Shown: piece after piece, positions 33,596 through 49,762 of the stretch
Position numbering within the stretch: the stretch's first letter is position 1
How the letters are laid out: the number at the start of each line of letters is the position of its first letter
DNA from: Fibrobacterota bacterium
GTDB taxonomy: Bacteria > Fibrobacterota > Fibrobacteria > UBA11236
Assembly (NCBI GenBank): GCA_947482115.1
Contig: CANKII010000001.1
Span: 577,840 to 641,839, forward strand
Direction: 5' to 3'
Length of the DNA stretch: 64,000 bases
Program-made: the position numbers and the translations under genes
Notes under the pieces: model-generated
The model's input: the letters and a program-made list of their open reading frames with translations, nothing else
Told to the model about the DNA's origin: nothing
The model's database searches: none

Positions 33596-34606
33596 ATGCA
33601 ACTCGACTGGAAAAACCTCGGTTTTCAATACCTTCCCACTCACGGTCAGGCGCAATGCGATTTTGCCGATGGGAAATGGGGTTCTCTGGAGTTCCAGACG
33701 AATCCCATGCTCAGTATGCATGTGGCCGCCAATTGCCTGCATTACGGTCAGGCCATTTTTGAAGGCCTGAAAGCTTTCCGCACCAAGGATGGCCGGGTAG
33801 TGATGTTCCGCCCGGACAAGAACGCCAGTCGCATGCGGGAATCCGCCGAACGGCTTTGCATGGAAGCCCCATCCGATGAGCTCTTTATAGAAGCCTGCAA
33901 AATGGCCGTGACTCGCAATATCGATTTTGTCCCACCTTATGGAACCGGTGCAAGCCTTTATCTCCGTCCGCTGCTCATCGGTACCGAAGCCACGGTGGGT
34001 ATTAAGGCTTCATCATCCTATACCTTCCTCGTGCTCGTAACGCCCGTGGGTCCTTATTACAAGGACGGTTTTCATCCCGTGGAAGCTTTGGTCATGCTGG
34101 ATTATGATCGCGCCGCGCCGAAAGGCACGGGCCGGGCCAAAACTGCGGGCAATTATGCCGCCAGTCTATTGCCGGGTTTGTTGGGAAAGAAAAAAGGCTT
34201 TCCCATCATCCTCTTTGCCGATCCCAAGGAAAACAAATATGTGGATGAATTCGGAACCTCCAACTTCATCGGCATTACAGCTGCCGGAGAGTACAAGACC
34301 CCTGACTCCTCATCCATCCTGCAAAGCGTGACCAACGAAAGCCTGCAACTCTTGGCAGCGGAAATGGGACTCAAAGTGGTGAAGGAACCCATTGCATTGG
34401 ATTCACTCGGTCAATTTTCCGAAGTGGGCGCATGCGGCACGGCAGCGGTGATTACACCGGTGCATGCCGTGCATTATGGGGAAAAAGTTTTCCGGTTTGG
34501 TGAAAAAGACAAAGCGGGCCAAACTCTGGCCCGCCTGTATAAAAACCTGCAAGCCATCCAGTACGGGGACTCTCCCGATACGCATGGATGGTTGGTAGAG
34601 GTTTAA
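33596..34606 (+). CDS. ilvE: Branched-chain amino acid aminotransferase (fold type IV)
   Basis: 336 aa. Typical class IV aminotransferase motifs (FEGLKAFR, GTGAAL-like region, catalytic Lys). Confidence 0.85.
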   Translation: MQLDWKNLGFQYLPTHGQAQCDFADGKWGSLEFQTNPMLSMHVAANCLHYGQAIFEGLKAFRTKDGRVVMFRPDKNASRMRESAERLCMEAPSDELFIEACKMAVTRNIDFVPPYGTGASLYLRPLLIGTEATVGIKASSSYTFLVLVTPVGPYYKDGFHPVEALVMLDYDRAAPKGTGRAKTAGNYAASLLPGLLGKKKGFPIILFADPKENKYVDEFGTSNFIGITAAGEYKTPDSSSILQSVTNESLQLLAAEMGLKVVKEPIALDSLGQFSEVGACGTAAVITPVHAVHYGEKVFRFGEKDKAGQTLARLYKNLQAIQYGDSPDTHGWLVEV

Positions 34607-34618
34607 CAAAAATGCAGC

Positions 34619-34654
34619 CCCGTAGGGGGCGCATTTTTGTTACGCCCCTTACGG
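34619..34654. terminator. Bidirectional terminator-like hairpin (cccgtagggggcg - catttttgtta - cgccccttacgg)
   Basis: Read directly; between the convergent ilvE and adhesin-gene stops. 12-bp arms with one mismatch and a T-rich loop. Confidence 0.45.
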
Positions 34655-37600
34655 ACCGGCGTTAACCACACCAATCTTGATGACAGCCGTTGTATTGCCA
34701 CCGGGGTTTTGCGCGGTGACCGTATAGTTTGTTGCCGGGGAAATCACCGAGGGCGTCCCCTGTATGTAACCCGTGGTTCCATCAAAAGTGATTCCGGTTG
34801 GAAGTGCCGGTAAAATGGAGTAATTCGTCACGATGCCTTGAACGGTGGGAACATTGGGAGGACTGATGGCGATATTGCGGCCATACGTGGGAATATCATC
34901 GATGTATGAAAGCTCGGTGGGAACTCCAACGATGGTAATGTTGATGATGGCTTGTACAGAACCCAACGGGTTGCTCGCTGTCACCGTGTAATCCGTGGCA
35001 AAGGATTGGTGTGTCGTCGGAGTTCCCGTCAGAACACCTGTCAAACTGTCTATAACCAGGCCAGTGGGAGGCGCAGGACTGACGGAATAATGGGTGATGA
35101 AGCCGGTAATCGAGGGAGGATTCGGAGTAATGGCCAGACCAAGGACGTAGGCCGCCGCGTCATCCGCATAGGAGAAATTGGAAGGTATGGCAAATACCCC
35201 GATGTTCACCACCGCTGTATCCGAACCTCCGGAACCGGTTGCAATAACCGAGAAATCGGCAGACAAAGATTGCAGCGTCGGAGTCCCGGAGATGACGCCG
35301 GTAAGAGTGTCCAACGACAAACCGGGTGGGAGCGGGGAAATAAGTGCATAGTGGGTTACATCCCCCCCAGTTGAAATCACGGAATCCGGAGTAATGGCCG
35401 AATCCTTTATATAAGCTGCGGGATTGTGAACGTATGCGATCATGGGGGCTATGAGAACCTGTAAAACACCGGAATCGCTTGTTGCCACACCGGCAATGTT
35501 GGTCACCACGCACTTGTAATAGCCCGAATCCGAACCCTGAACATTGACGAGCGTCAGCGTATCGAGATTGCCAACGCTGTCCACTCCGTTCTTGAGCCAC
35601 TTGTAGAAGAGCGGAGCCGTACCCGATGCAGTCACTCCAAATTTCGCCGTGGCTCCCTGAACAAGAGTCTGACTTACAATGGGCTGGGTGACAATGGACG
35701 CAGGCACATTCAACGACAAGGTCACGCTGTTGCTGGTAGTATCGCCAAGGGGGTTTGTCACAATGACTTTATAGGAGCCGGTATCCGCAGCCTGCACGTT
35801 CACCAAAGTCAGAGTGTCCAATGTGCCGACAGTATCGGTGTTGTTCTTCAACCAGACATAGGTAAGAGTGTCCATGCCCACGGCCATCACACCAAACTTC
35901 ACTGTGGATCCGGCATTCACCATCTGGCTGGCGGGTTGCGAGAGAATCACAGGCGCCAGATTCACAGTCAAAACCCCCGAGTCACTCGTTGCCACACCGG
36001 CAATGTTGGTCACCACGCACTTGTAATAACCCGAGTCCGAACCCTGAACATTGACCAAGGTTAGTGTATCCAGATTTCCAACACTATCCACCCCGTTCTT
36101 GAGCCATTTGTAGGAGAACGGGGCCGTACCCGAAGCCATTACGCCAAATTTCACGGTCGCAGTTTCATTTGCCACCTGGCTGGCGGGCTGCGAGGTCACA
36201 CTGGGAGCCACGTTCAACGCGAGGGTCACGCTTACACTTGACGTATCCCCGGCCACGTTATGAATCAGCACTTTGTACGAACCCGTATCCGCAGCCTGAA
36301 CATTGACCAGCGTCAATGTATCCGAAGAACCCACGGTGTCCGTATTATTCTTCAGCCAGACATAAGTCAACGGAGCCGTGCCCGTCGCCACCACCCCAAA
36401 TGTCGCCGTGGAGCCCGAGTTCACCATCTGGCTGGCGGGTTGCGAAGTAATCACCGGGACAAATTGCACATGCAAGGTGCCCGAATTGCTTGGTGCCACA
36501 CCGGCAACATTGGTGACAAAGCACTGATACGAACCCGAATCCGAGCCTTGAACATTGATCAGAGTCAATGTATCCGAAGAACCCACACTATCGGCGCCGT
36601 TGTGAATCCACTTATACGACAACGGATTGGTGCCTGTAGCCCCGATGCCAAATTTCACCGTGGAACCGGAATTCACCGTTTGAGATACGACCGGCTGGGA
36701 GGTTAGGCTGGGCAATATGTTCAACCCAAGGTTCGCACTAACACTGGAGGTGTCGCCGGCAATATTATGAACGAATACCTGGTAAGAGCCCGTGTCCGAA
36801 GCCTGAAAATTCAATATCGTGAGCGTATCCGTGAAAGCCACCGTGTCCGTATTGTTCTTCAGCCAGACATAAGTCAACGGAGCGGTGCCCGTCGCCACCA
36901 CACCAAATTTCACCGTGGAGCCTGCATTGGCCATCTGACTGGATGTCTGCGAGAGGATCACAGGAAGATAATGCACCACCAACGATCCGGGATTGCTGGG
37001 CGCAACACCTGCGATATTATTGACAAAGCACTGGTACGAACCCGAATCCGAACCCTGAACATTGACAAGGGTCAATGTGTCCAAATTACCCACGCTGTCC
37101 ACCCCGTTCTTCACCCACTTGTAATGAAGCGGAGCCGTACCGGTTGCGATGACACCCAGTTTCACCGTCACACCCGAATTCACGGTTTGGCTGGTGACAG
37201 GCTGCGAAGAAATGTTGGGCGCCACGTTCAGTCCCAGAGTCACGCTGACACTGGAAGTGTCTCCGGCGATGTTATGAACGAACACCCTGTAGGAACCCGT
37301 GTCCGCAGCCTGAAAATTCAATATCGTGAGTGTATCGGTGAAAGCTACCGTGTCCGTATTGTTCTTCAGCCAGACATAAGTCAACGGAGTCGTGCCCGTC
37401 ACCACCACGCCGAATTTGACTGTCGATCCCGCATTGGCCATCTGGCTTGAAGACTGGGACGTAATCACAGGGAGCGCATGCACGATCAAAATGCTGGAAT
37501 CACTCGTGGCAATGCCGGCAACATTCGTGACAATGCATTTGTAAGTGCCTGAATCTGAAAGTTGAACATTCGACAGGGTCAGGGTGTCCTGATTGCCCAC

Positions 37601-39058
37601 GCTGTCCACGCCATTCTTGAGCCATTTACGATGGAGCGGAGCCGTGCCCACCGACACAATGCCAATCTTAACGGTTGTTCCCGTCAGTACGGTCTGTGTG
37701 ACAACCGGTTGCGAAAGAATACCGGAGGGGACATTCAAGCCCAAAGTCACACTGTCGCTTATCAGATCACCAAGGGAATTGTGTATGAACACCTGGTAAG
37801 TACCGACATCCGAGACCTGCGCATTGGGCAGGGTCAGTGTATCCGATGTACCCACGGTGTCTGTATTGTCCTTGAGCCAGGTGTAGGTCACCGGAGCCGT
37901 TCCTGTGGCCACAACCACAAATTGCGCCGTGTCTCCTGTGTTTACCATCAAACTCACCGGCTGCGAGGTGATTTCGGGTGGAGTATGCACGATCAACACC
38001 CCGGAGTCACTAGCCGCTACACCGGCAACGTTCGTGACCACGCACCGGTAATATCCAGAATCGGCACCCACCACACTGGCAATCACCAGCGTATCCTGAT
38101 TTCCAACGCTGTCCGCGTCATCTTTAGTCCAGACGTAATGGAGTGGACCCGTGCCTGTCGCTACTACACCGAATGTCACCGAAGAATCCGCATTCACGGT
38201 TTGAGTGACAACAGGCTGGGAAGTGATCAAAGGCGCCACATTCAAACCCAGAGTCACACTGGTACTCACTGTGTCCCCGGCCACGTTGTGTACCAGTACC
38301 TTGTAAGAACCCGTATCTACCGCCTGGACATTGGATAAAGTCAGGGTATCGAGCAATCCCACGGTATCCGTATTATTTTTCACCCACTGATACGTTAATG
38401 GCGCAGTACCGGTGGCCTGCACGCCAAATTTCACCGTCGAACCTGTATTGGCCATTTGACTCACAGGTTGGGAGCTAATCACCGGTGGTTTGTTCAGGGA
38501 TAATGCAGCGTTGCTGCTCGTCGTATCTCCGATGAGATTGCTCACAACAACCGAATAAAAACCCGTGTCGGATACCTGGACGTTGAACAAAGTAAGCGTG
38601 TCCGTATTCCCTACACTGTCTATATCATTAAAGAGCCATTTATACGTCAATGGAGCCGTACCCGCAGCGACCACGCCAAATTTCACCGTCGAACCCGCAT
38701 TCACCATTTGGCTCATGGGATCGGAGACAATGGACGGCCTTTCATTCACTGTAATGTTTATCGTGTCCGTGGTGGAGCCGGAATCATTACTGGCCGTGAC
38801 CACGTAATCCGTGGCAACCGATGCCGATTCGGGAGCTCCTGAAATGACTCCGCTGACGGAATCCAGCACCAAGCCCGCAGGCAGGGCTGGCGCTACCGAG
38901 TAAAGAAAGACAGTATCCGTTACCGTGGGAGTGTCAGGTGTAATCGGCAAATTTACGGTGTAAACAACCGGGGTCGTGTAAGTGAGATCGGAGGGGGACT
39001 CAAATGCAAAGCTCGAAACAGCGAGCATCAAGAGGGCTGGCAAACCTATCTTTTTCAT
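34649..39058 (-). CDS. Giant secreted surface protein of ~13 tandem Ig-like (I-set-like, GxYxC) domains, with putative-Ig/cadherin-like domains at both ends
   Basis: 1469 aa. Signal peptide MKKIGLPALLMLAVSSFA. An ~90-aa repeating unit alternates between two subtypes (...TYVWLKNNTDTV...DTGSYKV... and ...HYKWVKNGVDSVGN...DSGSYQC...). Several units are near-identical at both protein and DNA level. Confidence 0.7.
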   Translation of the reverse strand: MKKIGLPALLMLAVSSFAFESPSDLTYTTPVVYTVNLPITPDTPTVTDTVFLYSVAPALPAGLVLDSVSGVISGAPESASVATDYVVTASNDSGSTTDTINITVNERPSIVSDPMSQMVNAGSTVKFGVVAAGTAPLTYKWLFNDIDSVGNTDTLTLFNVQVSDTGFYSVVVSNLIGDTTSSNAALSLNKPPVISSQPVSQMANTGSTVKFGVQATGTAPLTYQWVKNNTDTVGLLDTLTLSNVQAVDTGSYKVLVHNVAGDTVSTSVTLGLNVAPLITSQPVVTQTVNADSSVTFGVVATGTGPLHYVWTKDDADSVGNQDTLVIASVVGADSGYYRCVVTNVAGVAASDSGVLIVHTPPEITSQPVSLMVNTGDTAQFVVVATGTAPVTYTWLKDNTDTVGTSDTLTLPNAQVSDVGTYQVFIHNSLGDLISDSVTLGLNVPSGILSQPVVTQTVLTGTTVKIGIVSVGTAPLHRKWLKNGVDSVGNQDTLTLSNVQLSDSGTYKCIVTNVAGIATSDSSILIVHALPVITSQSSSQMANAGSTVKFGVVVTGTTPLTYVWLKNNTDTVAFTDTLTILNFQAADTGSYRVFVHNIAGDTSSVSVTLGLNVAPNISSQPVTSQTVNSGVTVKLGVIATGTAPLHYKWVKNGVDSVGNLDTLTLVNVQGSDSGSYQCFVNNIAGVAPSNPGSLVVHYLPVILSQTSSQMANAGSTVKFGVVATGTAPLTYVWLKNNTDTVAFTDTLTILNFQASDTGSYQVFVHNIAGDTSSVSANLGLNILPSLTSQPVVSQTVNSGSTVKFGIGATGTNPLSYKWIHNGADSVGSSDTLTLINVQGSDSGSYQCFVTNVAGVAPSNSGTLHVQFVPVITSQPASQMVNSGSTATFGVVATGTAPLTYVWLKNNTDTVGSSDTLTLVNVQAADTGSYKVLIHNVAGDTSSVSVTLALNVAPSVTSQPASQVANETATVKFGVMASGTAPFSYKWLKNGVDSVGNLDTLTLVNVQGSDSGYYKCVVTNIAGVATSDSGVLTVNLAPVILSQPASQMVNAGSTVKFGVMAVGMDTLTYVWLKNNTDTVGTLDTLTLVNVQAADTGSYKVIVTNPLGDTTSNSVTLSLNVPASIVTQPIVSQTLVQGATAKFGVTASGTAPLFYKWLKNGVDSVGNLDTLTLVNVQGSDSGYYKCVVTNIAGVATSDSGVLQVLIAPMIAYVHNPAAYIKDSAITPDSVISTGGDVTHYALISPLPPGLSLDTLTGVISGTPTLQSLSADFSVIATGSGGSDTAVVNIGVFAIPSNFSYADDAAAYVLGLAITPNPPSITGFITHYSVSPAPPTGLVIDSLTGVLTGTPTTHQSFATDYTVTASNPLGSVQAIINITIVGVPTELSYIDDIPTYGRNIAISPPNVPTVQGIVTNYSILPALPTGITFDGTTGYIQGTPSVISPATNYTVTAQNPGGNTTAVIKIGVVNAGP

Positions 39059-39525: not shown

Positions 39526-41106
39526 ATGAAAAAGCAAGTCTTCATATACGACACCACTTTGCGGGACGGCAATCAAGCCAAGGGCCTTTCCCTTTCGCTG
39601 GAAGACAAGCTCACCATCGCGCGCAAGCTGGACGATTTCGGAGTCGACTATATCGAGGGTGGATGGCCCAATGCCACCAATCCCACCGACGTCGAATTCT
39701 TTGCCCGCGCCCGGAAGATGACCTGGAAGTACGCAAAGATTGCGGCATTCGGCAGCACCTGCCGTCCCAACGGAAAACCGGAGGAAGATGCGAGCTTGCG
39801 GCATTTGGTGGACACACAGGCTCCGGTGATCACTATTTTCGGCAAAAGCTGGGACTTGCATGTCACCGACGTGTTGCGTACGACGCTCGAGGAAAATCTC
39901 CGGATGATCCGCGACTCCGTGGCGTTCCTCAAAAAACACGCTTCCGAAGTGGTATACGATGCCGAACATTTCTTTGACGGCTACAAGGCCAATCCAGAAT
40001 ATGCCATGTCGACCTTACGTGCGGCAAAAGAAGGCGGTGCGGATTGTCTTGTGTTATGCGATACCAACGGTGGCATGGCCTTGTCGTGGGAACTCGAAGA
40101 AATCACCGCCTTGGTAAAACGAACTTTGGATGCACCGTTGGGAATCCATGTTCACAACGATACGGGCGTAGCCATCGCCAACAGCCTCGCTGCGGTACGC
40201 GCAGGTGCGACGCAAGTCCAGGGCGTATTCAACGGTTACGGCGAGCGCTGCGGTAACGCCAATCTCACCGTCATCGTTCCCGATTTGCAGCTTAAGATGG
40301 GCTACAAGGTGGTTACGGATGAACAACTGGGGAAACTGCGCAGCCTTAGCCTGAGCATCAGCGAAGTCGCCAATCTCACAGACGATATCCGTCAGCCGTA
40401 CGTGGGTGAAGCGGCCTTTGCCCACAAAGGCGGAGCGCATGTGGATGGAGTCATGAAAGTGGCCCGCAGTTTCGAGCACATCGATCCGGCATTGGTGGGA
40501 AATGCCCGCGACTTCATCGTGTCCAATCAAAGCGGCAGCAGTTTGATCTGGGACAAGATCCGCGCCATCGTTCCCGAAGTGGACAAGCGCAGCCCTGAAG
40601 TGGCCGCGATATTGGCCGAGGTAAAGCACAAAGAGGATTCCGGATATCACTTTGAAATCGCCGATGCGAGTTTTCAATTGCTGGCCCGCCGCCATCTGGG
40701 TTTGTTTCAAGATCGCTTTGAATTTCTTGGCTTCAAATCCACCGAGGAACGCAAAGAAGATGGAGGACTGCATTCGGAATTCAGCCTCAAGTTGAAAGTC
40801 GGAAATGAAGTCGAGGAAACCTCCGCTGTGGGAAATGGTCCGGTAGACGCGATGAACGCCGCCATGTTGAAAGGTTTGATCCGTTTCTTCCCGAACTTGA
40901 AATCCCTCGAATTAATCGACTTCAAGGTCCGGGTGTTGGACAACGCCAAAGGCACCGGGGCGACAGTTCGCGTCTGGACGCGCTATCTCGATCATGCGCA
41001 TCCGGAAATGGAACCTTACGGAACCATCGGTGTTTCCACCAACATCATCGAAGCGTCATGGCTGGCGTTGATGGACGGGATTCATTACAAGTTGATGCGG
41101 GGATAA
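39526..41106 (+). CDS. cimA: (R)-citramalate synthase (LeuA/CimA family, short 'LeuA_allo' type)
   Basis: 526 aa. IYDTTLRDGNQAKGLSLSLEDKLTIARKLDDFGVDYIEGGWP and a C-terminal LeuA-dimer-like regulatory domain. The length and the N-terminus fit CimA rather than LeuA. Confidence 0.75.
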   Translation: MKKQVFIYDTTLRDGNQAKGLSLSLEDKLTIARKLDDFGVDYIEGGWPNATNPTDVEFFARARKMTWKYAKIAAFGSTCRPNGKPEEDASLRHLVDTQAPVITIFGKSWDLHVTDVLRTTLEENLRMIRDSVAFLKKHASEVVYDAEHFFDGYKANPEYAMSTLRAAKEGGADCLVLCDTNGGMALSWELEEITALVKRTLDAPLGIHVHNDTGVAIANSLAAVRAGATQVQGVFNGYGERCGNANLTVIVPDLQLKMGYKVVTDEQLGKLRSLSLSISEVANLTDDIRQPYVGEAAFAHKGGAHVDGVMKVARSFEHIDPALVGNARDFIVSNQSGSSLIWDKIRAIVPEVDKRSPEVAAILAEVKHKEDSGYHFEIADASFQLLARRHLGLFQDRFEFLGFKSTEERKEDGGLHSEFSLKLKVGNEVEETSAVGNGPVDAMNAAMLKGLIRFFPNLKSLELIDFKVRVLDNAKGTGATVRVWTRYLDHAHPEMEPYGTIGVSTNIIEASWLALMDGIHYKLMRG

Positions 41107-41119
41107 AATCCCGCGCTCT

Positions 41120-42973
41120 TCAAGGCTGTGAAAATCGGAGTCTATCTAAATATTCCAGCGCACTGGGAAAACCCGGCTTGACTTTCAAAGCCTTGCGAAA
41201 CAGAATTTCTGCGGTTTTCATGTCGCCCAAGATGGCCCGATCCACTCCCTGATTCACATAAGACGTCGCATAATCCGCCTTGATTTCCCCAACGAAAAGA
41301 TGATTGCCATCCGGCAAAGGTCTGAAAGAAAATTCTTTCACGGGAAGAATGGCGACATTGGTGTCCCGGAAAAGACGCAGCACGAGACCCGAAGCGACAC
41401 CCTTATATCCTTCGGGTGAAACCTCCGGGGTGGCATAAACCGGCCGCTTCCCATAATTTGTTCCGATAAAACTTTGCGCAACTGAAATGAACCGGGATTT
41501 CAGAAGCATGCCGCTATTCAACCCGCGATCGAACGCATTCATTTCACGAATGGCGGTTTCCACTTCGGAACGCGAATTCTCAACCAGCCAGGGATAACGC
41601 TGCTCAAGCTGAGGAAAGTACCAGGCCGATTCCAAAAAGGATTTATCAATCACCGTCACATCGGGCCTCATTCCCTCCACCAACTGGAGATAATAAGCGG
41701 GCATGGTGAACTGCGGCCCCTGATCCGAAAAAATGATCGCTCCGGAATCCACGGAATCGAAAACATTTCTCACATAGTCCTCAACCGCATAATCACGGCT
41801 TTCGTCAATGGCACGGTAGTGGACACATAACGGGGAAAAAACCAGCATCAGACATAAAATCCGGGCAAACCGTAACAGCATCTTCCCGCGCATGATCTCC
41901 AGAGAGAAATAAATCCCGTATGCGATCCAAATTCCCGTCGTGACATAAGCCAACAGGTAATAGGAATCTATGTCGGTTATGCCATAATTACTGGAATAAG
42001 CCAGACAACAAAAAAAGAGCAGCGCCGAAAAAACCAGCATTCTTTTGAAGCGCCGGAAAAGCCCCACCAATCCAATAAATGCAAAGAACAGCGGAACATA
42101 TCCGAACTCTGACGGATAAGTTCTGAAAAAGTGCTGAAGGTGACCTTCAGCGGTATCGAATGAAGCAAACATGGCGGCATGATATTGTTTGCCGGTGACA
42201 TGCCACCAAAACTCCTGGAGGGTGACGGGATTGCCCCAATTCATCAAGGGATGTTGGGCGGCGCGCAACGGGAGATAGAGGTAAAGGGACAATCCGATGA
42301 GAAATGGAATCGCCGCCATCGCAATCTTGATCCATGAAGCGCGTGAAAAGCCCTGAGTCGCGAAGAAGAGGTAAAGAAACCCGGGGGCAAGCAGAATGGT
42401 CGTCATGTGATTGGTGAAACTCAATCCCAATATCAGGGCAAACAGATGCCATAACCGGTTTGAATGCGGATTTTCCAAAACCGAGCGGACAAAAAGCAGA
42501 ATCAACAGTGATAGAAAAAGGAGATGGAGGGGATAAACTTCAACCGAAAGCGCCTGGGACCAGAATGTACCGGAGAAGGCGAGAATTAATGCTGCAGATG
42601 CGGACGCGATTCTCGCGGAAGCTTCCCGAACGCTCCCTGCGACAGCGGATTTGTTTAAAAGCAGCCGCAGAAACAGCTGGTAAAAGAAAAAAACCGCAAT
42701 GGAACACAGAACCGCAGACATGAGGTTCAGCTTCCAAATGATTCGCCCCCCAATGGGAAGATGAGCGAACACCCAGCCCAAAAGAGTGAACAACGGATAA
42801 CCGGTGGGATGTGCAATACCCAATGTTGATGCAACCACCGCCAATTCCCCGCTGTCCATGGGCAGAACCGAGGGTGCAAGCGTGCTCAAATAGACGAGAA
42901 ATGCAACCAGCGAAAGGAGCAAGCCAACCCAAACGTCGCTTTGAAAAAATTTTAAGCGCTTTGGATCTCTCAT
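41120..42973 (-). CDS. DUF2723-type polytopic membrane protein (PMT/TMEM260-like GT-C glycosyltransferase fold) with a C-terminal TPR-like region
   Basis: 617 aa. About 11 TM helices in the N-terminal ~450 aa, a DUF2723-like N-terminus (LAPSVLPMDSGELA) and a soluble C-terminal domain. Confidence 0.55.
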   Translation of the reverse strand: MRDPKRLKFFQSDVWVGLLLSLVAFLVYLSTLAPSVLPMDSGELAVVASTLGIAHPTGYPLFTLLGWVFAHLPIGGRIIWKLNLMSAVLCSIAVFFFYQLFLRLLLNKSAVAGSVREASARIASASAALILAFSGTFWSQALSVEVYPLHLLFLSLLILLFVRSVLENPHSNRLWHLFALILGLSFTNHMTTILLAPGFLYLFFATQGFSRASWIKIAMAAIPFLIGLSLYLYLPLRAAQHPLMNWGNPVTLQEFWWHVTGKQYHAAMFASFDTAEGHLQHFFRTYPSEFGYVPLFFAFIGLVGLFRRFKRMLVFSALLFFCCLAYSSNYGITDIDSYYLLAYVTTGIWIAYGIYFSLEIMRGKMLLRFARILCLMLVFSPLCVHYRAIDESRDYAVEDYVRNVFDSVDSGAIIFSDQGPQFTMPAYYLQLVEGMRPDVTVIDKSFLESAWYFPQLEQRYPWLVENSRSEVETAIREMNAFDRGLNSGMLLKSRFISVAQSFIGTNYGKRPVYATPEVSPEGYKGVASGLVLRLFRDTNVAILPVKEFSFRPLPDGNHLFVGEIKADYATSYVNQGVDRAILGDMKTAEILFRKALKVKPGFPSALEYLDRLRFSQP

Positions 42974-43088
42974 ATTCAGAGAATCTTAACAAAACCGACT
43001 CGCCGCTTATATTGCTCTGGGAAAAAGAGCGGATTTTCAGAGCAATTTCAGAGCAGCCGTTCCCATTCGTGCGGGACTCCATTATTTT

Positions 43089-43928
43089 GTGGACACCATG
43101 AACACCGCGCCGGACATAGCCGGGTACACTGATTACCGGAAATATTTGCAGGACGCTTATGTCGCCCGTAAATCCTGGGACGGAAAATTTTCCCAACGAT
43201 TCATCAATCAAAAAATGGGAACCCGATCCTCCGGATGGTTTGCGGACGTCCTTGCCCGAAGGCAAAAACTCAAACCTCATCATGCAACCCAGATCGGCAC
43301 AATATTCAAGCTTGAATCCAGGGAGCGGGATTTTCTGAGGGTGCTCATTGAATTGGAGCAGGCCTCAACACCCGAAGAAAGAACCGCGGCGTATGACAAA
43401 TGGTTCAGTCTCAAGGGCATGCGCGAGGAAATAGTCTCGAAGGATCGTTTCAAATATTTTGAGCATTGGTACTATCCGGCCCTTCGCGAATTATTGACGC
43501 TAAAACCGTTTCAGGTAAATTACGCCGCCCTCTCCACATTGCTTTATCCCCCCATAAAACCCGCCCAGGCGAAGGAAGCCGTGGAGACCTTGATTCGGCT
43601 GGGACTTGTTTTTCCGGGAGCCCCTTCCCCCCTCCCCGTTCTCGTTAAGGACTCTTCAAGCAAAACAAATCACTGGCACAAGATCCTGAAATCGTACATG
43701 CAGCTTGCATTGCCCGCCCTGAAAAAATTTTCCAAGGAGGAGCGCAATTTCTCCTCTCTGACACTCACCTTTTCGCCGGAAGGATTGAAAAAGGCCGGTG
43801 ATGAAATTGCGGCCCTTCGCAGCAGACTTCTGATGCTGTCCGAGAAAGATCGGGATCGGGATCGGGTTTATCAATGCCTCTTTCAGGTCTTTCCACTGTC
43901 ATTACCGGTGGAGACCCAAGGTGATTGA
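43089..43928 (+). CDS. Hypothetical protein, TIGR02147-like (Fibrobacter-type paralogous family; possible HTH regulator)
   Basis: 279 aa. The N-terminal YTDYRKYLQDAY...FSQRF pattern matches my recollection of TIGR02147 members. The assignment is tentative. Confidence 0.35.
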   Translation: MDTMNTAPDIAGYTDYRKYLQDAYVARKSWDGKFSQRFINQKMGTRSSGWFADVLARRQKLKPHHATQIGTIFKLESRERDFLRVLIELEQASTPEERTAAYDKWFSLKGMREEIVSKDRFKYFEHWYYPALRELLTLKPFQVNYAALSTLLYPPIKPAQAKEAVETLIRLGLVFPGAPSPLPVLVKDSSSKTNHWHKILKSYMQLALPALKKFSKEERNFSSLTLTFSPEGLKKAGDEIAALRSRLLMLSEKDRDRDRVYQCLFQVFPLSLPVETQGD

Positions 43929-45234
43929 CCGGAAAAATATTTTCCAGGGCATCGCCTTGGCTGCGATGCTTTTGTTTTCCGCCTGCCAGTTTCTCAGCAA
44001 TGGCGGCACGGAAATCCCCAACGAGCTTACCGGTAACCTGTATCTTCAGGGTGGAATGCCATCGGCCTACACGGAAGTAATCCTGTATCCCGTGGATTAT
44101 GTTCCCGGAGATGCAGGCTCGATGGCGAAGCGAAGAATCACCCGAACAGACAGCACCGGCAGATTCCGCTTCAAAAACATCCCTGCAGGATGGTATAATG
44201 TATTCAGCCGTCAGGGTCTTCAAAATTCCATGGATAGCGTATTTGCCTTTTCCGATTCCATTACGCTTTCAAGTGGAACGCGGGAAATGCCACCCGACAC
44301 CTTGCGACATCCCGGCTCCCTGAGCGGCATCGTGCAACTGCGCGCGCAGGACGATCCCAGAACTGCAACGGTGCAATTGCTCGGAACCGATTATTCAGGT
44401 TCCGTCGATTCCAACGGGAGATTTCAGATTCCGCGCGTGGCGCAGGGCATTTACCCTGTACGGGTTATCACCACACTTCCGGATTATGCACCGGGTATTC
44501 AGCAGGTGACCGTACAGTCAGGCAGAAACGACACCTTGCCGGATATTCTCATCCTCAGCTATCCGAAGCATTTTACCATCAACAATTCCACCTCTGCTTT
44601 ATGGACTTTTGACATCCTCAGCAATACCGGTACGATTCAAGATGTCGTGAATGGCTTCCTCTTGACACCATCAAAACCGATGCCCTATGAAGCCACATCT
44701 TTTGGTTTCGCTGTGGCCATGAACGGGACGGGCCAGTACTTCGCCATTGAAAATCACCTGGAGTTGACAATCAGTGCCACGGGAAAGGTCACTTATGAAG
44801 CCCGCATTTATCTGGATCAATATCCGGCGGGTTCCTTTATGGAAGCGTCTTCAGTTATCAGCCTGAATCGGGACCTCAATCTCCAAATCAATTCGGATGG
44901 AAGCCTTCAAATCTGGACGAGGAAGCTGGATCTCACAGCAACCGCTTATGATTATATCCCGGTCAGCGCGCCGGGGGTCATTCCATTAAAACGCTGGGTG
45001 GATGTGGCGGTGGCTCTCGATCAAGGTGCGCATCAATGCTATGGCTATGTGGATGAAAAACCCGTTTCACTATCCGTGGGATTTGTGAATGCGGACCCCT
45101 TCGAGGTTTTAAAATCACGCCTGTTCGTCGGCAATGATTCCCTGAACAGTCAGCAATTCATCGGGAAGATCGACGAACTGAGGATTTCAACCAGCTTAGT
45201 CCTCGGAGCAGGCCTGCCCCTCGTCATTAAATGA
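43921..45234 (+). CDS. Secreted lipoprotein with two carboxypeptidase-regulatory-like beta-sandwich domains and a C-terminal LamG/concanavalin-A-like lectin domain
   Basis: Lipobox LLFSACQF. TDSTGRFRFKNIPAGWYNV and VDSNGRFQIPRVAQGIYPV are CarboxypepD_reg-like. The C-terminus has a ConA-like jellyroll signature (GKIDELRIS). Confidence 0.5.
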   Translation: MIDRKNIFQGIALAAMLLFSACQFLSNGGTEIPNELTGNLYLQGGMPSAYTEVILYPVDYVPGDAGSMAKRRITRTDSTGRFRFKNIPAGWYNVFSRQGLQNSMDSVFAFSDSITLSSGTREMPPDTLRHPGSLSGIVQLRAQDDPRTATVQLLGTDYSGSVDSNGRFQIPRVAQGIYPVRVITTLPDYAPGIQQVTVQSGRNDTLPDILILSYPKHFTINNSTSALWTFDILSNTGTIQDVVNGFLLTPSKPMPYEATSFGFAVAMNGTGQYFAIENHLELTISATGKVTYEARIYLDQYPAGSFMEASSVISLNRDLNLQINSDGSLQIWTRKLDLTATAYDYIPVSAPGVIPLKRWVDVAVALDQGAHQCYGYVDEKPVSLSVGFVNADPFEVLKSRLFVGNDSLNSQQFIGKIDELRISTSLVLGAGLPLVIK

Positions 45235-46110
45235 CCCATCGCAAATGGCCATGTAAATCCTGCCATTCTTCGCGGGCTGCAAATACACCTTCGACGGATT
45301 CGCAATAACCCCCTCCCCATCCACTTCCACATAACCACGCTCAAGTCGGTAGCTTTCACCGCTTTCAATTTCTGCGGAATCAAAGGGAACGAGCACATTG
45401 TTGGCCAGATGCCAAATATGAAGGGTAAAAGGTGTGTTGCCCGTGTTCAACATCCGTATCGTGTCTCCCCCCATATTCCAGTCTCTTACAGGCTCTGATG
45501 TAAAGGCTTTCATCCGTCCGAAATCCAATCCGTATTGGGACATGTCCACTTCCACCGCATCCGACCGGTAAAGTTTAAAGTCCAGGACTTTCGCAAACAC
45601 ATTGAATGAAACTTCCTGCGAAAGATTCAGAGTGTCTCCCTGTGCATCCGTGGTATTACCGGAAATATTGGCCTCCGCTGCATTATCCCCCATGGGAAGC
45701 AAACTGTCCGGCCCCAAACCATCCAAACGATTGCCGTGCACCACGTTCAGTGTGATGACTTGAAGTATCGGGGCATTTTTGGCGGGTTGCAAAACCTTGA
45801 TGGTGGACGGACTGAAGTAAAAATGCGGATTGTTCGTGGTCAAATGGATGTTGCGAATGTCCACGTCTCCCGTGTTTTTCAGAACAAAAAATCTTTGGAT
45901 GGAACTTTTCGCGTCGCCCAAATCAAATTCAAGGGCTTTCGAACCCGTATCCTGAACCGGAATTTTTTCAACAGCTTTTTTTGCGGATGCCAGAGAAGCA
46001 AACTGGAGATGACCGGGCCGGAGTCCGCCATTTGCATTGGTGAGACTGGCATCCTTGCTCATGCAAGCAACAAAAACCGACACCAGCCCAAAGGCAAAAC
46101 AACGTCTCAC
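45196..46110 (-). CDS. Lipoprotein of unknown function, paralogue A
   Basis: Lipobox VFVACMSK. Clear paralogy to the adjacent gene (LTTNNPxFYFSPSxI...LPMGxNxAxAxxSGxTxD). Confidence 0.5.
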   Translation of the reverse strand: MRRCFAFGLVSVFVACMSKDASLTNANGGLRPGHLQFASLASAKKAVEKIPVQDTGSKALEFDLGDAKSSIQRFFVLKNTGDVDIRNIHLTTNNPHFYFSPSTIKVLQPAKNAPILQVITLNVVHGNRLDGLGPDSLLPMGDNAAEANISGNTTDAQGDTLNLSQEVSFNVFAKVLDFKLYRSDAVEVDMSQYGLDFGRMKAFTSEPVRDWNMGGDTIRMLNTGNTPFTLHIWHLANNVLVPFDSAEIESGESYRLERGYVEVDGEGVIANPSKVYLQPAKNGRIYMAICDGSFNDEGQACSED

Positions 46111-46132
46111 ACAAATCCCTTCGAAAGTTTAA

Positions 46133-47074
46133 CTACCAGCCCGAGGGGTAAAAGATTCCGGTAAATTTACCATTAGTCGCAGAGTTGACGCTGGCCTGCA
46201 GCCACAACTTTTCGGATTTGGCGACAACACCATGCCCGTCGATTTGAATCAGCGGTGCGCCGGGTTTCCCGTCGAAGGATACCACCATGTTGCATCGTGG
46301 GGCGACCTCCATCGAATCTGCTGCAACCGCGATATAGTTGGCATCATTGTAAAAAGCCTTAACCTTGAAACTCGTGTTTCCAGAATTGAAAATCCTCAAT
46401 GTGGGGCTACTCAGGGGTTTTTTGCCCGTATAGAATCCGCGCACCGCATCGCCGGTAATGCCACCATACCCCCCGAAATTGAAATTGTTGCGTGACATGT
46501 CCACAAGCGACGAGTCAAACGAATAAAACTCTACATCAAAGATTTTCGCGTAAACCTTAAATTGAGCCAACTGGGAAATGGCGATCGAGTCGTGATGGCT
46601 ATCCGAGGTCGTTCCGGACACTGAAGCCGTCGCGATATTTGCGCCCATGGGCAGTTGAGACGCCGGGCCCACTCCGTTGATCTGGGTGCCGTGAATGACA
46701 CAGAGTTTGACCAGTTGCAGCAATGAGGATGTTTTAGCAGGTGCTAAGATGTCAATTTCCGAGGGACTGAAATAAAAATTAGGGTTGTTCGTGGTCAACT
46801 TGACATGCTTCACGTCGCAATCCCCGGTGTTTTGCAACAGGAAGTATTGCTGAATGGAACTGTTGGCCGTATCGAGGTCAAATGTGTACGTGGTTGAAGA
46901 ACCCACCGTCTTCAAAGAACTGGTGACCTTGGCCAACCCTTTCATGGAAACCAGTTGGATCTGTCCCGGTTGTGAATCACTTGAAATGGGTGCGGTAACG
47001 GAATCTTCCTTGTTCATGCAAGCAGTAAAGCCCAAGACCAGCGCCAAAATGAGAATCTGTTTCAACTGTTTCAT
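46133..47074 (-). CDS. Lipoprotein of unknown function, paralogue B
   Basis: Lipobox LGFTACMNK. Tandem paralogue of 45196..46110. Confidence 0.5.
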   Translation of the reverse strand: MKQLKQILILALVLGFTACMNKEDSVTAPISSDSQPGQIQLVSMKGLAKVTSSLKTVGSSTTYTFDLDTANSSIQQYFLLQNTGDCDVKHVKLTTNNPNFYFSPSEIDILAPAKTSSLLQLVKLCVIHGTQINGVGPASQLPMGANIATASVSGTTSDSHHDSIAISQLAQFKVYAKIFDVEFYSFDSSLVDMSRNNFNFGGYGGITGDAVRGFYTGKKPLSSPTLRIFNSGNTSFKVKAFYNDANYIAVAADSMEVAPRCNMVVSFDGKPGAPLIQIDGHGVVAKSEKLWLQASVNSATNGKFTGIFYPSGW

Positions 47075-47215
47075 AAGTAACCTCCGAGTTGGATACCCTT
47101 TAGTTTAGGAGCCGAAAAACCTCGCGTCAAGAGAAATCACAGTTTCGGACAAATAACCGCTCTGTAAATAAGAGCGTTACAGGGGAAATGTTTTTAAAAA
47201 GGCCGGATTTGCTTT

Positions 47216-49762
47216 TCAATCCAAAGTATCGTCCGAAACCCTGCCAAATCCGGAGGGGAATTTAATCGCTAAAAATCCCAGTACTCCAAACGCAATCCAT
47301 GTGATGTACAGCCAGACTTTGCGATAAGGATCCCACACGCCTTCGACTTCAATTGTATGCTCGCCAGCCGGAACTTTTAGAACAATTTCATAGGTAGCAC
47401 CGGGATAAAACGGAGTTTTTTGCCCGTCAATGCTTGTCTGGAGATAACTGTAATAGCTAGCTGCAAGCCGTACATAAGCTGGCTGGTTCAGTCGGATGCG
47501 ATAGTGATATTTCTTGGGATAGACTTTATAATCCAATAAATTCAAAACTGGACTTCCAGAAGCAGGTAATGATTCAAATGATGTGCCGGCTTGAACAAAG
47601 ATTCTTTTGGCAGTTGAATGCTCATAATCCAGATTCATGTCCGAAAAAAGTTGTTTTAATTCCGAGGGGTCTTCCTCATTTTTCCATGCATGAGACTCTA
47701 TACCTGAGCTGGCGATAACTGGAGTGTGATAGCGGAACCGCCCATCAATGTAAACGTCGTCTGTCTCAAGATCTTCCAACTTCGTGGTATCGAAAGTGTG
47801 AATTGGATCACCATGCAATACAACATCACGAAAATTGTTCAGGTAAAAATAATTGAGCGAGAAACTATCTGGAAACACATGTGGCTCTTTAAAATGGGTC
47901 ATTAACCAGCCGTAAAATGTTTGCCCAAAGATGGAACGTCGCGGACCTGTTTCTGGTTGGATTCCCAGTTCAGATGGCATCCCTATTCTTCTAACCATAG
48001 AGCCGGGTATTTGTCCGCTATAATCCCCCGCCTTTTCTTCTTCAATAAAAAAGTAATACGGAACATTTTCCCCTTTATCCAGATATCTTTTGCTTTCAGC
48101 TTTATAACGTTCCATGAAATTCCACTTGTCTTGAGTTGCGGCCTTGAAGGGAAACTGGAATGTTGTGGCTCCAACATCGAGCGCTAAAAAAACAAGCGGG
48201 ATAATACCCCAAAGATTTTGAAACCTTGGAAATTTTTCACTCGCCCACCGCCGCCAGATTAATATTCCGAAGCCGGAACCAGCCGACATAAAAAAAACCA
48301 AAAAGGCCTGATAGCGATGATCCGGAAAAATTCGTAGGAATGTGAGGCCAGGAACCCTAACCAGTTCGAAGTAGAAAAACACTACGACAATGCTTCCGAT
48401 GAGAAAAACGGAAATAAATTTCAAGGCATTCGAATCCAAATCAAATCTTCTTGATAGTCCAAACAGTCCTAAGAGGGCAAACAACAGTGGGACCAAACCC
48501 AAGTATCTGTTGAAAAAACTTGCCTTGGCAATTTTTTCGGCTTTGGAACCTTCCCCAATAAACCAGTGGCCATTGTACCATTGATACAGAACCTCGGGAC
48601 GTATCCTCATTTCAGGGTTAGCTTGAATGGCCTCAAAATTTCGGGCGGTATGATGTGCAGCAGATTCATTTTTTTGGACTATGGGCGCAGTGACCATTCC
48701 TGCTAGAATGAATATCTCAAGACCAAACGAAATTGCGAAAAGGATAAAAGATCTCTTTTTCTGAATACGGAGGGATCGGGTGGCTAGCCGGAAAAGGCAG
48801 TAAAGAGTGACAAGCCCCCAGACCATAGCCCCCCACACAAAGTGAGTGTAAACGATACCAGCCAGAGGAATTGCACACAAAAGAAAATAGCGTAACCGAA
48901 ATCTGCTTTCTGCCAATCCAAGTTCGAAAAAATAAAACGGCCACGGAAGGCATGCATATACGATGGATAATGGAAGTTGTCCAATACCGAAAACGTGATA
49001 AAAGTGCCAATAATTCAAGCAAAATGCGCAGCTCGAAAAAATCGCGGCATAGCGACTTCGCGTCAGTTTTTCGATCCAAAGAAACATCCCGATTCCAGAG
49101 GCTGTAAAAGCCACCCATAGAATTAATTTGACACCAAAATGCGAATTTGTGAGAAATGCCAAGACTCCAGCAAGAACTGAAAACAGGTTACCGATGTATT
49201 GCCTGCAATTCCATCCGGAATAGAACAAGGTGGAATAATTTGCGAAAGCACCCATTTTAAGAGAACGAGTAAATTCGTCAATACCCGCAACAAAAAATAT
49301 GTGATCAACAAAGAATGGAAACTCGCCTGGATGCAGAGAAAATCGGCAGAATGAAGCAAACAGAAATGAAAGACATAGGGCTTTTTTCCAAGTGCTATTA
49401 CCGATTATCTCCCATGTCCCTTCAAGCACTCGAAATCGAGCTTGCAAGTAAACCATGTATATGGGTATACCGATCAAAAGGACCGCTAAAAGTTCGTCTA
49501 AGCTGTCAAATCGAATGGGGGAATTTGGATTGGATAGGTAGGTAGTGAAGTCGGTAAAAGAACCAAATACAGTGTTTACTGCGAGAACCTGACTGAACTT
49601 CGTAAGCGTCACAAACTGAAAAACCCAAAGCAAAAAACACCAGCCTACGAGTGCCAATAAAAAGTGAAAACGACGATCCGATATGACTAGAATCTTTGAA
49701 CTTTCTGAGACTTGACTTTGGCTCAAAGCTCGCTGGATTTTAGTTCGCTTTTTACTTCCCAT
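47216..49762 (-). CDS. YfhO-like GT-C-fold polytopic membrane protein (probable envelope glycosyltransferase), lower GC
   Basis: 848 aa. About 13 N-terminal TM helices, a large extracytoplasmic C-terminal domain and a final C-terminal TM helix (VWLYITWIAFGVLGFLAIKF); this topology is characteristic of YfhO-family proteins. AT-richer than its surroundings. Confidence 0.45.
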   Translation of the reverse strand: MGSKKRTKIQRALSQSQVSESSKILVISDRRFHFLLALVGWCFLLWVFQFVTLTKFSQVLAVNTVFGSFTDFTTYLSNPNSPIRFDSLDELLAVLLIGIPIYMVYLQARFRVLEGTWEIIGNSTWKKALCLSFLFASFCRFSLHPGEFPFFVDHIFFVAGIDEFTRSLKMGAFANYSTLFYSGWNCRQYIGNLFSVLAGVLAFLTNSHFGVKLILWVAFTASGIGMFLWIEKLTRSRYAAIFSSCAFCLNYWHFYHVFGIGQLPLSIVYACLPWPFYFFELGLAESRFRLRYFLLCAIPLAGIVYTHFVWGAMVWGLVTLYCLFRLATRSLRIQKKRSFILFAISFGLEIFILAGMVTAPIVQKNESAAHHTARNFEAIQANPEMRIRPEVLYQWYNGHWFIGEGSKAEKIAKASFFNRYLGLVPLLFALLGLFGLSRRFDLDSNALKFISVFLIGSIVVVFFYFELVRVPGLTFLRIFPDHRYQAFLVFFMSAGSGFGILIWRRWASEKFPRFQNLWGIIPLVFLALDVGATTFQFPFKAATQDKWNFMERYKAESKRYLDKGENVPYYFFIEEEKAGDYSGQIPGSMVRRIGMPSELGIQPETGPRRSIFGQTFYGWLMTHFKEPHVFPDSFSLNYFYLNNFRDVVLHGDPIHTFDTTKLEDLETDDVYIDGRFRYHTPVIASSGIESHAWKNEEDPSELKQLFSDMNLDYEHSTAKRIFVQAGTSFESLPASGSPVLNLLDYKVYPKKYHYRIRLNQPAYVRLAASYYSYLQTSIDGQKTPFYPGATYEIVLKVPAGEHTIEVEGVWDPYRKVWLYITWIAFGVLGFLAIKFPSGFGRVSDDTLD

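Follow-up and report, generated by a model that had tools for sequence, protein, structure and literature searches.

A length-invariant tandem immunoglobulin-domain gene and its probable rod-like product in an uncultured member of the Fibrobacteria

Fibrillar adhesins are operationally defined by the presence of an adhesive domain together with a stalk, and the survey of Monzon, Lafita & Bateman (2021) places the immunoglobulin (Ig) family I-set (PF07679) on its list of stalk domains (PMC8286594). About half of the fibrillar-adhesin-like (FA-like) proteins in that survey are without a recognisable anchor, and how such anchorless proteins reach the cell surface and stay on it is flagged in this literature as a gap (PMC8286594). 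Periscope proteins (Whelan et al.) are characterised by a very high identity between the coding sequences of their repeats and by length variation between strains (reviewed in PMC9704523). For Fibrobacter succinogenes, the proposed signal for secretion by the type IX system (T9SS) is a basic C-terminal domain (BTD) with an isoelectric point (pI) above 9 (PMC6851124). Here, these systems are compared with an Ig-repeat gene of a Fibrobacterota bacterium, found in a stretch of 64,000 nucleotides (nt) from assembly GCA_947482115.1 (contig CANKII010000001.1, positions 577,840 to 641,839 of the forward strand), which is called the window and is numbered from its first letter.

Neither hypervariable nor a contingency locus, the Ig-repeat gene is length-invariant and nearly sequence-invariant within the species. 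Its product is probably a stable, Sec-exported, monomeric rod-like protein of the FA-like class in an uncultured member of the Fibrobacteria. The open reading frame (ORF) listed in a preliminary description of the window is real and lies on the reverse strand (Table 1). It is preceded by a Shine-Dalgarno-like ribosome-binding site, GGAAGGA, about 8 nt 5' of the ATG, and encodes a Thr/Ser-rich protein of 1469 amino acids (aa), about 151 kDa and with a pI of 4.5.

Pfam finds 13 stretches of Ig_3 in this protein (E=4.5e-142, 463 bits against a cut-off of 30) and 13 of I-set (E=1e-105, 346 bits against a cut-off of 23.7), and by the Pfam gathering score the protein is a member of the I-set/Ig_3 superfamily. 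Four stretches of He_PIG, one N-terminal and three C-terminal, agree with the putative-Ig/cadherin-like termini that had been noticed before. The number of Ig domains expected from the preliminary description, about 13, is also found, with units of 84 or 85 aa instead of about 90. The alternation of two subtypes is seen from unit 2 onward, with an A+B period of 507 nt in the DNA; the array consists of one extra A unit and then six A-B double units of 504-507 nt. The A-type units (1, 2, 4, 6, 8, 10, and 12) have 84 aa, the motif GxYxV and zero Cys, while the B-type units (3, 5, 7, 9, 11, and 13) have 84-85 aa, the motif GxYxC and a single Cys in the F strand. The GxYxC motif that had been given for the repeats is, therefore, a property of the six B-type units and not of the seven A-type units. 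The whole protein has 6 Cys. The canonical pair of Cys in strands B and F, which makes the intradomain disulfide, is absent in the array, with 0 Cys in the A units and 1 in the B units. This pair is not obligatory for I-set membership.

To determine the similarity of the units in DNA, the 13 were aligned in a codon-aware manner. Identity is highest, at 83%, for units 6 and 8, the next-best pairs are at 77, 76, and 73%, most pairs are at 50-70%, and adjacent units are at 50-62%; at third codon positions, which are close to saturation, the identity between units is 31-64%. The longest exact direct repeat within the gene has 43 nt, and exact repeats of at least 30 nt cover 168 of the 4410 bases. 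Tandem Repeats Finder gave no array for this gene, except one 47-nt feature, and for this reason the repeats were defined from the protein. It is clear that the units are not nearly identical in DNA, as had been thought, but only distantly similar.

The silent sites were also considered. Units 11 and 13 share a stretch of 48 aa that is identical in protein, yet 37.5% of its third positions differ. As a yardstick of age, third-position identity was determined at those codons where the two sequences have the same amino acid. Between the window genome and that of a sister species (GCA_900299345.1), this identity is 49% for the neighbouring aminotransferase gene and 53% for leuA. For the most similar units, it is 65% (units 6 and 8) and 62.5% (the 48-aa stretch of units 11 and 13), which means that the youngest pairs of repeats are nearly as old at silent sites as the split of the two species. 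The protein similarity of the units is kept up by selection and is not the result of a recent gene conversion. In protein, neighbouring units are 43-61% identical and units of the same type two positions apart are 58-88% identical.

The window protein is exactly the database protein P0121, and this exact sequence is carried on 23 contigs. Two copies of the gene that were fetched (L012 and L013) have 0 DNA differences from the window over 4410 nt, and the 90% identity cluster has only two further members, P0001 with 2 and P0122 with 1 residue changed, both having 1469 aa. The homology search found nothing between 100% and 53% identity, and the protein collection contains no length variant of the species. 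The database copies are mostly short-read assemblies, which limits the test of length variation; short reads should assemble this array correctly because the repeats are so diverged. The preliminary description had proposed ongoing intragenic recombination or gene conversion, and from it variation in length or antigenicity. Neither finds support, given that the repeats are distantly similar in DNA, that all copies are nearly invariant and that every database copy from the species has 1469 aa. Indeed, the two observations that the same description had named as speaking against it, repeats with only a distant similarity in DNA and an invariant gene length, are the ones made here, the latter on the 23 contigs and the three members of the 90% cluster.

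Between species, the array has changed. The positional orthologue in the sister species, P0002, has 1547 aa and 14 units of exactly 84 aa, versus 13 in the window protein, to which it is 53% identical. A joint comparison of the 27 units places the split of A and B types before the split of the species. In the neighbour-joining tree, the units group by species within each of the two types, and every unit has a best identity within its own protein that is equal to or higher than its best identity to the units of the orthologue. Concerted evolution would give such a clustering by species, and so would duplication and loss that took place independently. One allele of the sister species, P0123 (L011 1501-5892), shows versus L001 8001-12644 an in-frame deletion of 252 nt, which corresponds to exactly one Ig unit, with no other mismatch over 4392 nt and with the breakpoint inside a 36-nt perfect direct repeat encoding YKWLKNGTDSVG. 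This allele was obtained from one sample, SAMN03252802, on two near-identical contigs, and reflects either a real loss of one unit by recombination or a collapse of repeats during assembly.

These differences between species, together with the tandem and domain-sized layout, are the features that would be found in a length-variable surface protein of the Periscope type, where highly identical repeats recombine often and generate variation between strains in both length and antigenicity. The allele that is one unit short, deleted between perfect repeats of 36 nt, the 14 versus 13 units of the two species, and the clustering of units by species all fit such a protein. Nonetheless, it is very unlikely here, given that DNA identity does not exceed 83% and falls to 50-62% for the adjacent units, that the longest exact repeat has 43 nt, that all copies from the species have one length, the exact protein being on 23 contigs, and that the deletion allele, seen in a single sample, might stem from a collapsed assembly. 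A slow process is more consistent with the data: the stalk may have originated by tandem duplication of a two-domain A-B unit, as a result of which the immediate neighbour of each domain is of the dissimilar type, and rare recombination between short identical stretches (36-43 nt) may gain, lose, and homogenise units over long times.

The fold of the units was explored with an AlphaFold2 model of units 6 and 7, which gave two beta-sandwiches with a pLDDT (predicted local distance difference test) of 94.9. A Foldseek comparison of this model with the PDB has titin I67-I69 and Robo1 Ig1-4 at the top with a probability of 1.00; the matches to titin (PDB 2rik and 3b43) and Robo have an E of about 1e-11, a template-modelling (TM) score of 0.67-0.76 and 24-26% identity. 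As modelled, units 6 and 7 have the beta-sandwich Ig fold. When solved structures are searched by sequence, the closest chains are from phages, namely 9ncf_S (E=1e-46) and 9c2d_S, a tail protein of Shigella phage Sf14 (E=4e-38; PMC11821841), and these are followed by titin, Robo, and DSCAM. In the protein collection, 1986 proteins were found at E<=1e-10 among 8000 candidates scored. Most of these are Ig-array proteins of 1200-2500 aa, 32-42% identical over about 75% of the query and named 'immunoglobulin domain-containing protein' or 'hypothetical'; the few with a named source are from Verrucomicrobiota, Planctomycetota, Ignavibacteriae, and Acidobacteriota.

Given that the best matches among solved structures are phage proteins, and that 268 phage records match, the gene might be seen as encoding an Ig-like decoration or tail protein, of phage or prophage derivation, that was captured in the chromosome. 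This origin is extremely improbable. The identity to the phage proteins is only about 36%, which is no closer than that of hundreds of bacterial Ig_3 proteins at 35-41%, the protein has a signal peptide, its synteny is conserved in the sister species, and the neighbours include leuB and genes for a carbamoyltransferase, an ilvE-like aminotransferase, and leuA, with zero phage genes among them. A prophage origin was rejected on this genomic context together with the low identity.

Turning to export, the cleavage of the predicted signal peptide was placed by eye near the junction of SFA and F, and the counterpart in the orthologue P0002 is MKQSIWLVVASLTVSAFA followed by D. Inspection of the sequence found no lipobox Cys after the signal peptide, the first Cys being residue 339. 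At the other end, the protein terminates as ...IKIGVVNAGP directly after a He_PIG, 3 residues past the terminal domain. NCBIfam gave no sorting-domain match at E<=0.01 for the whole protein or at E<=10 for the last 91 and 178 aa, and nine terminal units, searched with Pfam at E<=1, matched He_PIG alone. No C-terminal domain (CTD) of the T9SS, of type A (TIGR04183/PF18962) or type B (TIGR04131), was found, and a search for a transmembrane tail, an LPXTG motif with a hydrophobic tail and a C-terminal beta-barrel was equally negative, so that the protein is not recognised as a lipoprotein, a sortase substrate or an autotransporter. The earlier remark that no sortase, T9SS, or autotransporter signal is recognisable is, therefore, borne out in NCBIfam and Pfam at permissive thresholds.

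The C-terminal module of three He_PIG domains has its best matches, at 51-55% identity, at the very C-terminal ends of proteins with another domain make-up: P0009 (DUF2341 and He_PIG, 2410 aa), P0023 (Laminin_G_3, DUF2341, and He_PIG, 1629 aa), and P0032 (2164 aa). The match to these three is equal to the match to the orthologue and clearly above that to their internal He_PIG repeats. The two internal He_PIG of the module are conserved position by position in P0002, P0009, P0023, and P0032. The genome of P0002 also encodes P0023, the last domain of which is of the same terminal He_PIG subtype as in the Ig-repeat protein. The locus of P0023 (L014 6001-10890, contig OMJM01000022) stands beside two tandem GDSL-lipase genes. 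On L020, a contig fragment from the Joint Genome Institute (JGI), the final B-type Ig unit is followed by three He_PIG and a stop, which indicates a third lineage with the same design.

The last He_PIG, with the motifs LSYxDDxPTY...PPNxPTxQGIVT...TTGYIxGTP...NPGG, was used to build a profile that was run over 289 gathered proteins, of which 176 carried He_PIG, with 2715 units in all. It scored 106-148 bits on 17 of the 2715 units, all ending 0-11 residues before the stop, and 90 bits or less on every other He_PIG unit. Of the 17, 12 went into the profile itself or are alleles of sequences that did, and the five independent ones are P0128, P0151, P0178, P0229, and P0243. With a profile of the last two units, 17,376 proteins were found at E<=0.001, dominated by giant multi-He_PIG proteins in which the best stretch is mostly internal; He_PIG pairs in general are not C-terminal, and the terminal subtype is separated only by the profile of the last unit alone. 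A metagenome scan with the terminal unit gave one locus, and a homology search with the last 178 aa gave 15 short fragments, the query's own protein not being among them. Such a pattern is typical of domains that sort or anchor a protein by its end, and the terminal He_PIG is a weak candidate for one.

The protein might instead be unanchored, remaining after Sec export in the periplasm, or serving in soluble form as a binding or matrix protein that is released to the medium or in outer-membrane vesicles, with the C-terminal He_PIG cassette as a shared ancestral binding module that has no role in sorting or anchoring. This would be in line with the lack of a lipobox, a transmembrane anchor, a T9SS CTD or BTD, a beta-barrel, and an LPXTG motif, and with the wide distribution of He_PIG, which is mostly an internal repeat in the more than 17,000 database proteins that have it. 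The terminal unit is also acidic (its 91 aa have a pI of 4.2), unlike the basic domain of Fibrobacter succinogenes (PMC6851124). The confinement of the terminal subtype to the protein end in 17 of 17 cases speaks against an unanchored protein, such a position being usual for terminal signals and anchors, and a rod of 17 domains, about 60-70 nm, would be odd in the periplasm. Overall, the unanchored state is unlikely, although it is the alternative to be taken most seriously.

For the rod-like protein of the FA-like class, which is preferred here, the 13 titin-like I-set domains would form a stalk roughly 50-60 nm long, at about 4 nm per domain. The protein would project a binding surface away from the cell or bind an extracellular polymer, and it may be held or sorted through the conserved terminal He_PIG and not through a T9SS CTD, a lipid anchor, a sortase motif, or a beta-barrel. 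We infer the surface location and the ligand, as well as what the terminal He_PIG does. Several points weigh against this assignment. There is no known adhesive domain among the Pfam matches, which are to Ig-family domains, He_PIG, and sub-threshold noise. In a diderm, a Sec signal alone takes a protein only to the periplasm, and no route for export across the outer membrane was identified for this one. The 23 contigs with the identical protein may represent a single widespread clone and not many strains. The argument from the terminal domain is thin, with five proteins that are independent of the profile and the fragment L020, and shared descent of the C-terminal cassette without a sorting role is equally compatible with the same pattern. 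The AlphaFold2 model of the two C-terminal domains, made from a 5-sequence alignment, has a pLDDT of 52, too poor for a fold comparison with T9SS CTDs.

That the terminal He_PIG subtype is a previously undescribed C-terminal sorting or surface-attachment domain of a Fibrobacteria lineage is, thus far, a doubtful proposal. If true, this acidic domain, derived from He_PIG, would be functionally analogous to the T9SS CTD and would mark a regulon of large secreted proteins with Ig-array, DUF2341/Laminin_G_3, and multi-He_PIG architectures.

The neighbours of the Ig-repeat gene are housekeeping genes, for PPK2, leuB, a carbamoyltransferase, a class IV (ilvE-like) aminotransferase, and a leuA-like protein (Table 1). 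In the sister genome, P0002 occupies the same position, between the leuA and aminotransferase genes; the flanking proteins are 83% and 87% identical between the two genomes, versus 53% for the Ig-repeat protein. In two other metagenome-assembled genomes of the Fibrobacteria (L005 10001-12840 and L006 10001-12948), the aminotransferase gene directly adjoins leuA and the Ig gene is absent between them. The Ig-repeat gene is therefore an accessory gene, fast-evolving and specific to its lineage, that was inserted into a conserved pair of branched-chain amino-acid genes, those for the ilvE-like aminotransferase and leuA. The hairpin that lies between the convergent aminotransferase and Ig-repeat genes is, from its sequence pattern, a probable bidirectional terminator, and because of it the Ig-repeat gene appears to be monocistronic. 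A scan for sigma-70 promoters upstream of the gene gave no match, such a scan being uninformative for this phylum.

Table 1. Positions of the Ig-repeat gene, its encoded domains and the neighbouring features in the window
Feature	Position	Strand	Remarks
Ig-repeat gene	34649..39058	(-)	Complete ORF including stop codon
Predicted signal peptide, MKKIGLPALLMLAVSSFAF...	38999..39058	(-)	Sec-type by inspection; N-terminus of the orthologue equivalent
N-terminal He_PIG (putative Ig / dystroglycan-type cadherin-like)	38738..38989	(-)	aa about 22-107; Pfam
Array of 13 I-set/Ig_3 domains	35447..38737	(-)	aa 108-1204; Pfam and unit placement
Two internal C-terminal He_PIG	34925..35446	(-)	aa about 1205-1378; Pfam
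Terminal He_PIG, distinct subtype	34652..34924	(-)	aa 1379-1469
Class IV (ilvE-like) aminotransferase gene	33596-34606	(+)	Convergent with the Ig-repeat gene
GC-rich hairpin, GCCCCGTAGGGGGC, with T-runs on both strands	34617..34630	.	Pattern match
leuA-like gene	39526-41106	(+)	
TMEM260-like (PF11028) putative protein O-mannosyltransferase gene	41120-42973	(-)	2 kb from the Ig-repeat gene
TIGR02147 (Fsuc_second) paralogue	43089-43928		

Beyond the leuA-like gene, a block of about 8.6 kb (41120-49762) extends to a gene for a 992-aa transglycosylase. Given that leuA and the transglycosylase gene abut in the sister genome, this block is a lineage-specific insertion. It encodes a TMEM260-like GT-C glycosyltransferase, a TIGR02147/DUF4423 protein, a protein with CarboxypepD_reg and Laminin_G_3, two ORFs without a family match above threshold, one of them with a faint sub-threshold match to HYDIN-like Ig, and an 848-aa ORF without a match in Pfam or NCBIfam. 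The GC content drops to 0.44-0.46 at 46-50 kb. The TIGR02147 (Fsuc_second) paralogue at 43089-43928 agrees with an origin of the window in the Fibrobacteria. Eukaryotic TMEM260 O-mannosylates the Ig-like IPT domains. A functional link between the TMEM260-like gene and the Ig-repeat gene is conceivable; the TMEM260-like gene is not syntenic in the sister genome.

The antisense ORFs listed within the gene had been regarded as products of its repetitiveness and not as genes. That they are not genes holds, while for four of the five the cause is codon usage. These four lie in the codon-aligned antisense frame, in which stops can only come from TTA, CTA, and TCA codons of the sense strand; such codons are 14 of the 1470, and their rarity keeps this frame open. 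The longest antisense ORF has 259 aa, versus 311 +/- 89 aa in synonymous-codon shuffles that preserve the protein and its codon usage, so the shuffles give ORFs that are longer still. A further ORF, of 146 aa (35160-35600), is on the same strand as the Ig-repeat gene (reverse) and in another frame; over the length of the gene, that frame contains 35 stops, and at most 202 codons in a row are open. Like the antisense ORFs, this ORF is most likely a by-product of composition.

The Ig-repeat protein is an ordinary member of a common and poorly understood class of bacterial surface proteins. It adds one to the thousands of known uncharacterised Ig-repeat proteins, with a false lead of hypervariability removed. 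The position-specific terminal He_PIG provides a testable handle on how the many anchorless Ig or fibrillar proteins get to the surface and are retained on it in bacteria of the Fibrobacterota-Chlorobiota-Bacteroidota (FCB) group.

When the protein is compared with the systems described above, the closest likeness is with the FA-like proteins: it is a long, single-chain secreted protein in which the bulk is a tandem Ig-fold stalk and the anchor is not recognisable. It has the stalk of fibrillar adhesins proper, with 13 I-set domains, and lacks a known adhesive domain. The Ig_3/I-set arrays of Verrucomicrobiota, Planctomycetota, Ignavibacteriae, and Acidobacteriota have the same Pfam domains and a similar size; those arrays carry other modules (PF07603, Laminin_G_3, GDSL lipase, and pectate lyase), while the He_PIG-capped architecture is shared only by the Fibrobacteria orthologues P0002 and L020. 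Tandem I-set domains are also found in phage tail and capsid decoration proteins, such as those of Shigella phage Sf14 (PDB 9c2d) and the Felixounavirus tail. These phage proteins have 2-4 domains versus 13, are about 36% identical to the Ig-repeat protein and differ from it in context, which here is chromosomal and housekeeping.

The terminal He_PIG resembles the T9SS CTD (TIGR04183/PF18962) and the Fibrobacter BTD/Fpm-1 in being Ig-like, about 90 aa long, strictly C-terminal, and common to differently built secreted proteins in one genome. Unlike the T9SS CTD, it has no match to TIGR04183 or PF18962, and unlike the BTD, which is basic with a pI above 9, it is acidic.

With Periscope proteins, the Ig-repeat protein shares a rod-like tandem array, domains of more than 50 residues, secretion by a bacterium, and the gain and loss of units over evolutionary time. 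It differs from them in both of their defining properties, given that its repeats are 50-83% identical in DNA and its length is invariant in all database copies. The I-set fold and the extended tandem arrangement are shared with the titin I-band and with the Robo/contactin ectodomains; those eukaryotic proteins differ from the array in the B-F disulfide, which is absent here, and functional homology is not implied. Similarity is lower between neighbouring domains, which is also the case in titin. The locus is a clean example of a bacterial tandem-Ig stalk made from a two-domain super-repeat in which neighbours are kept dissimilar, a design that is the opposite of that of Periscope proteins and that resembles titin.

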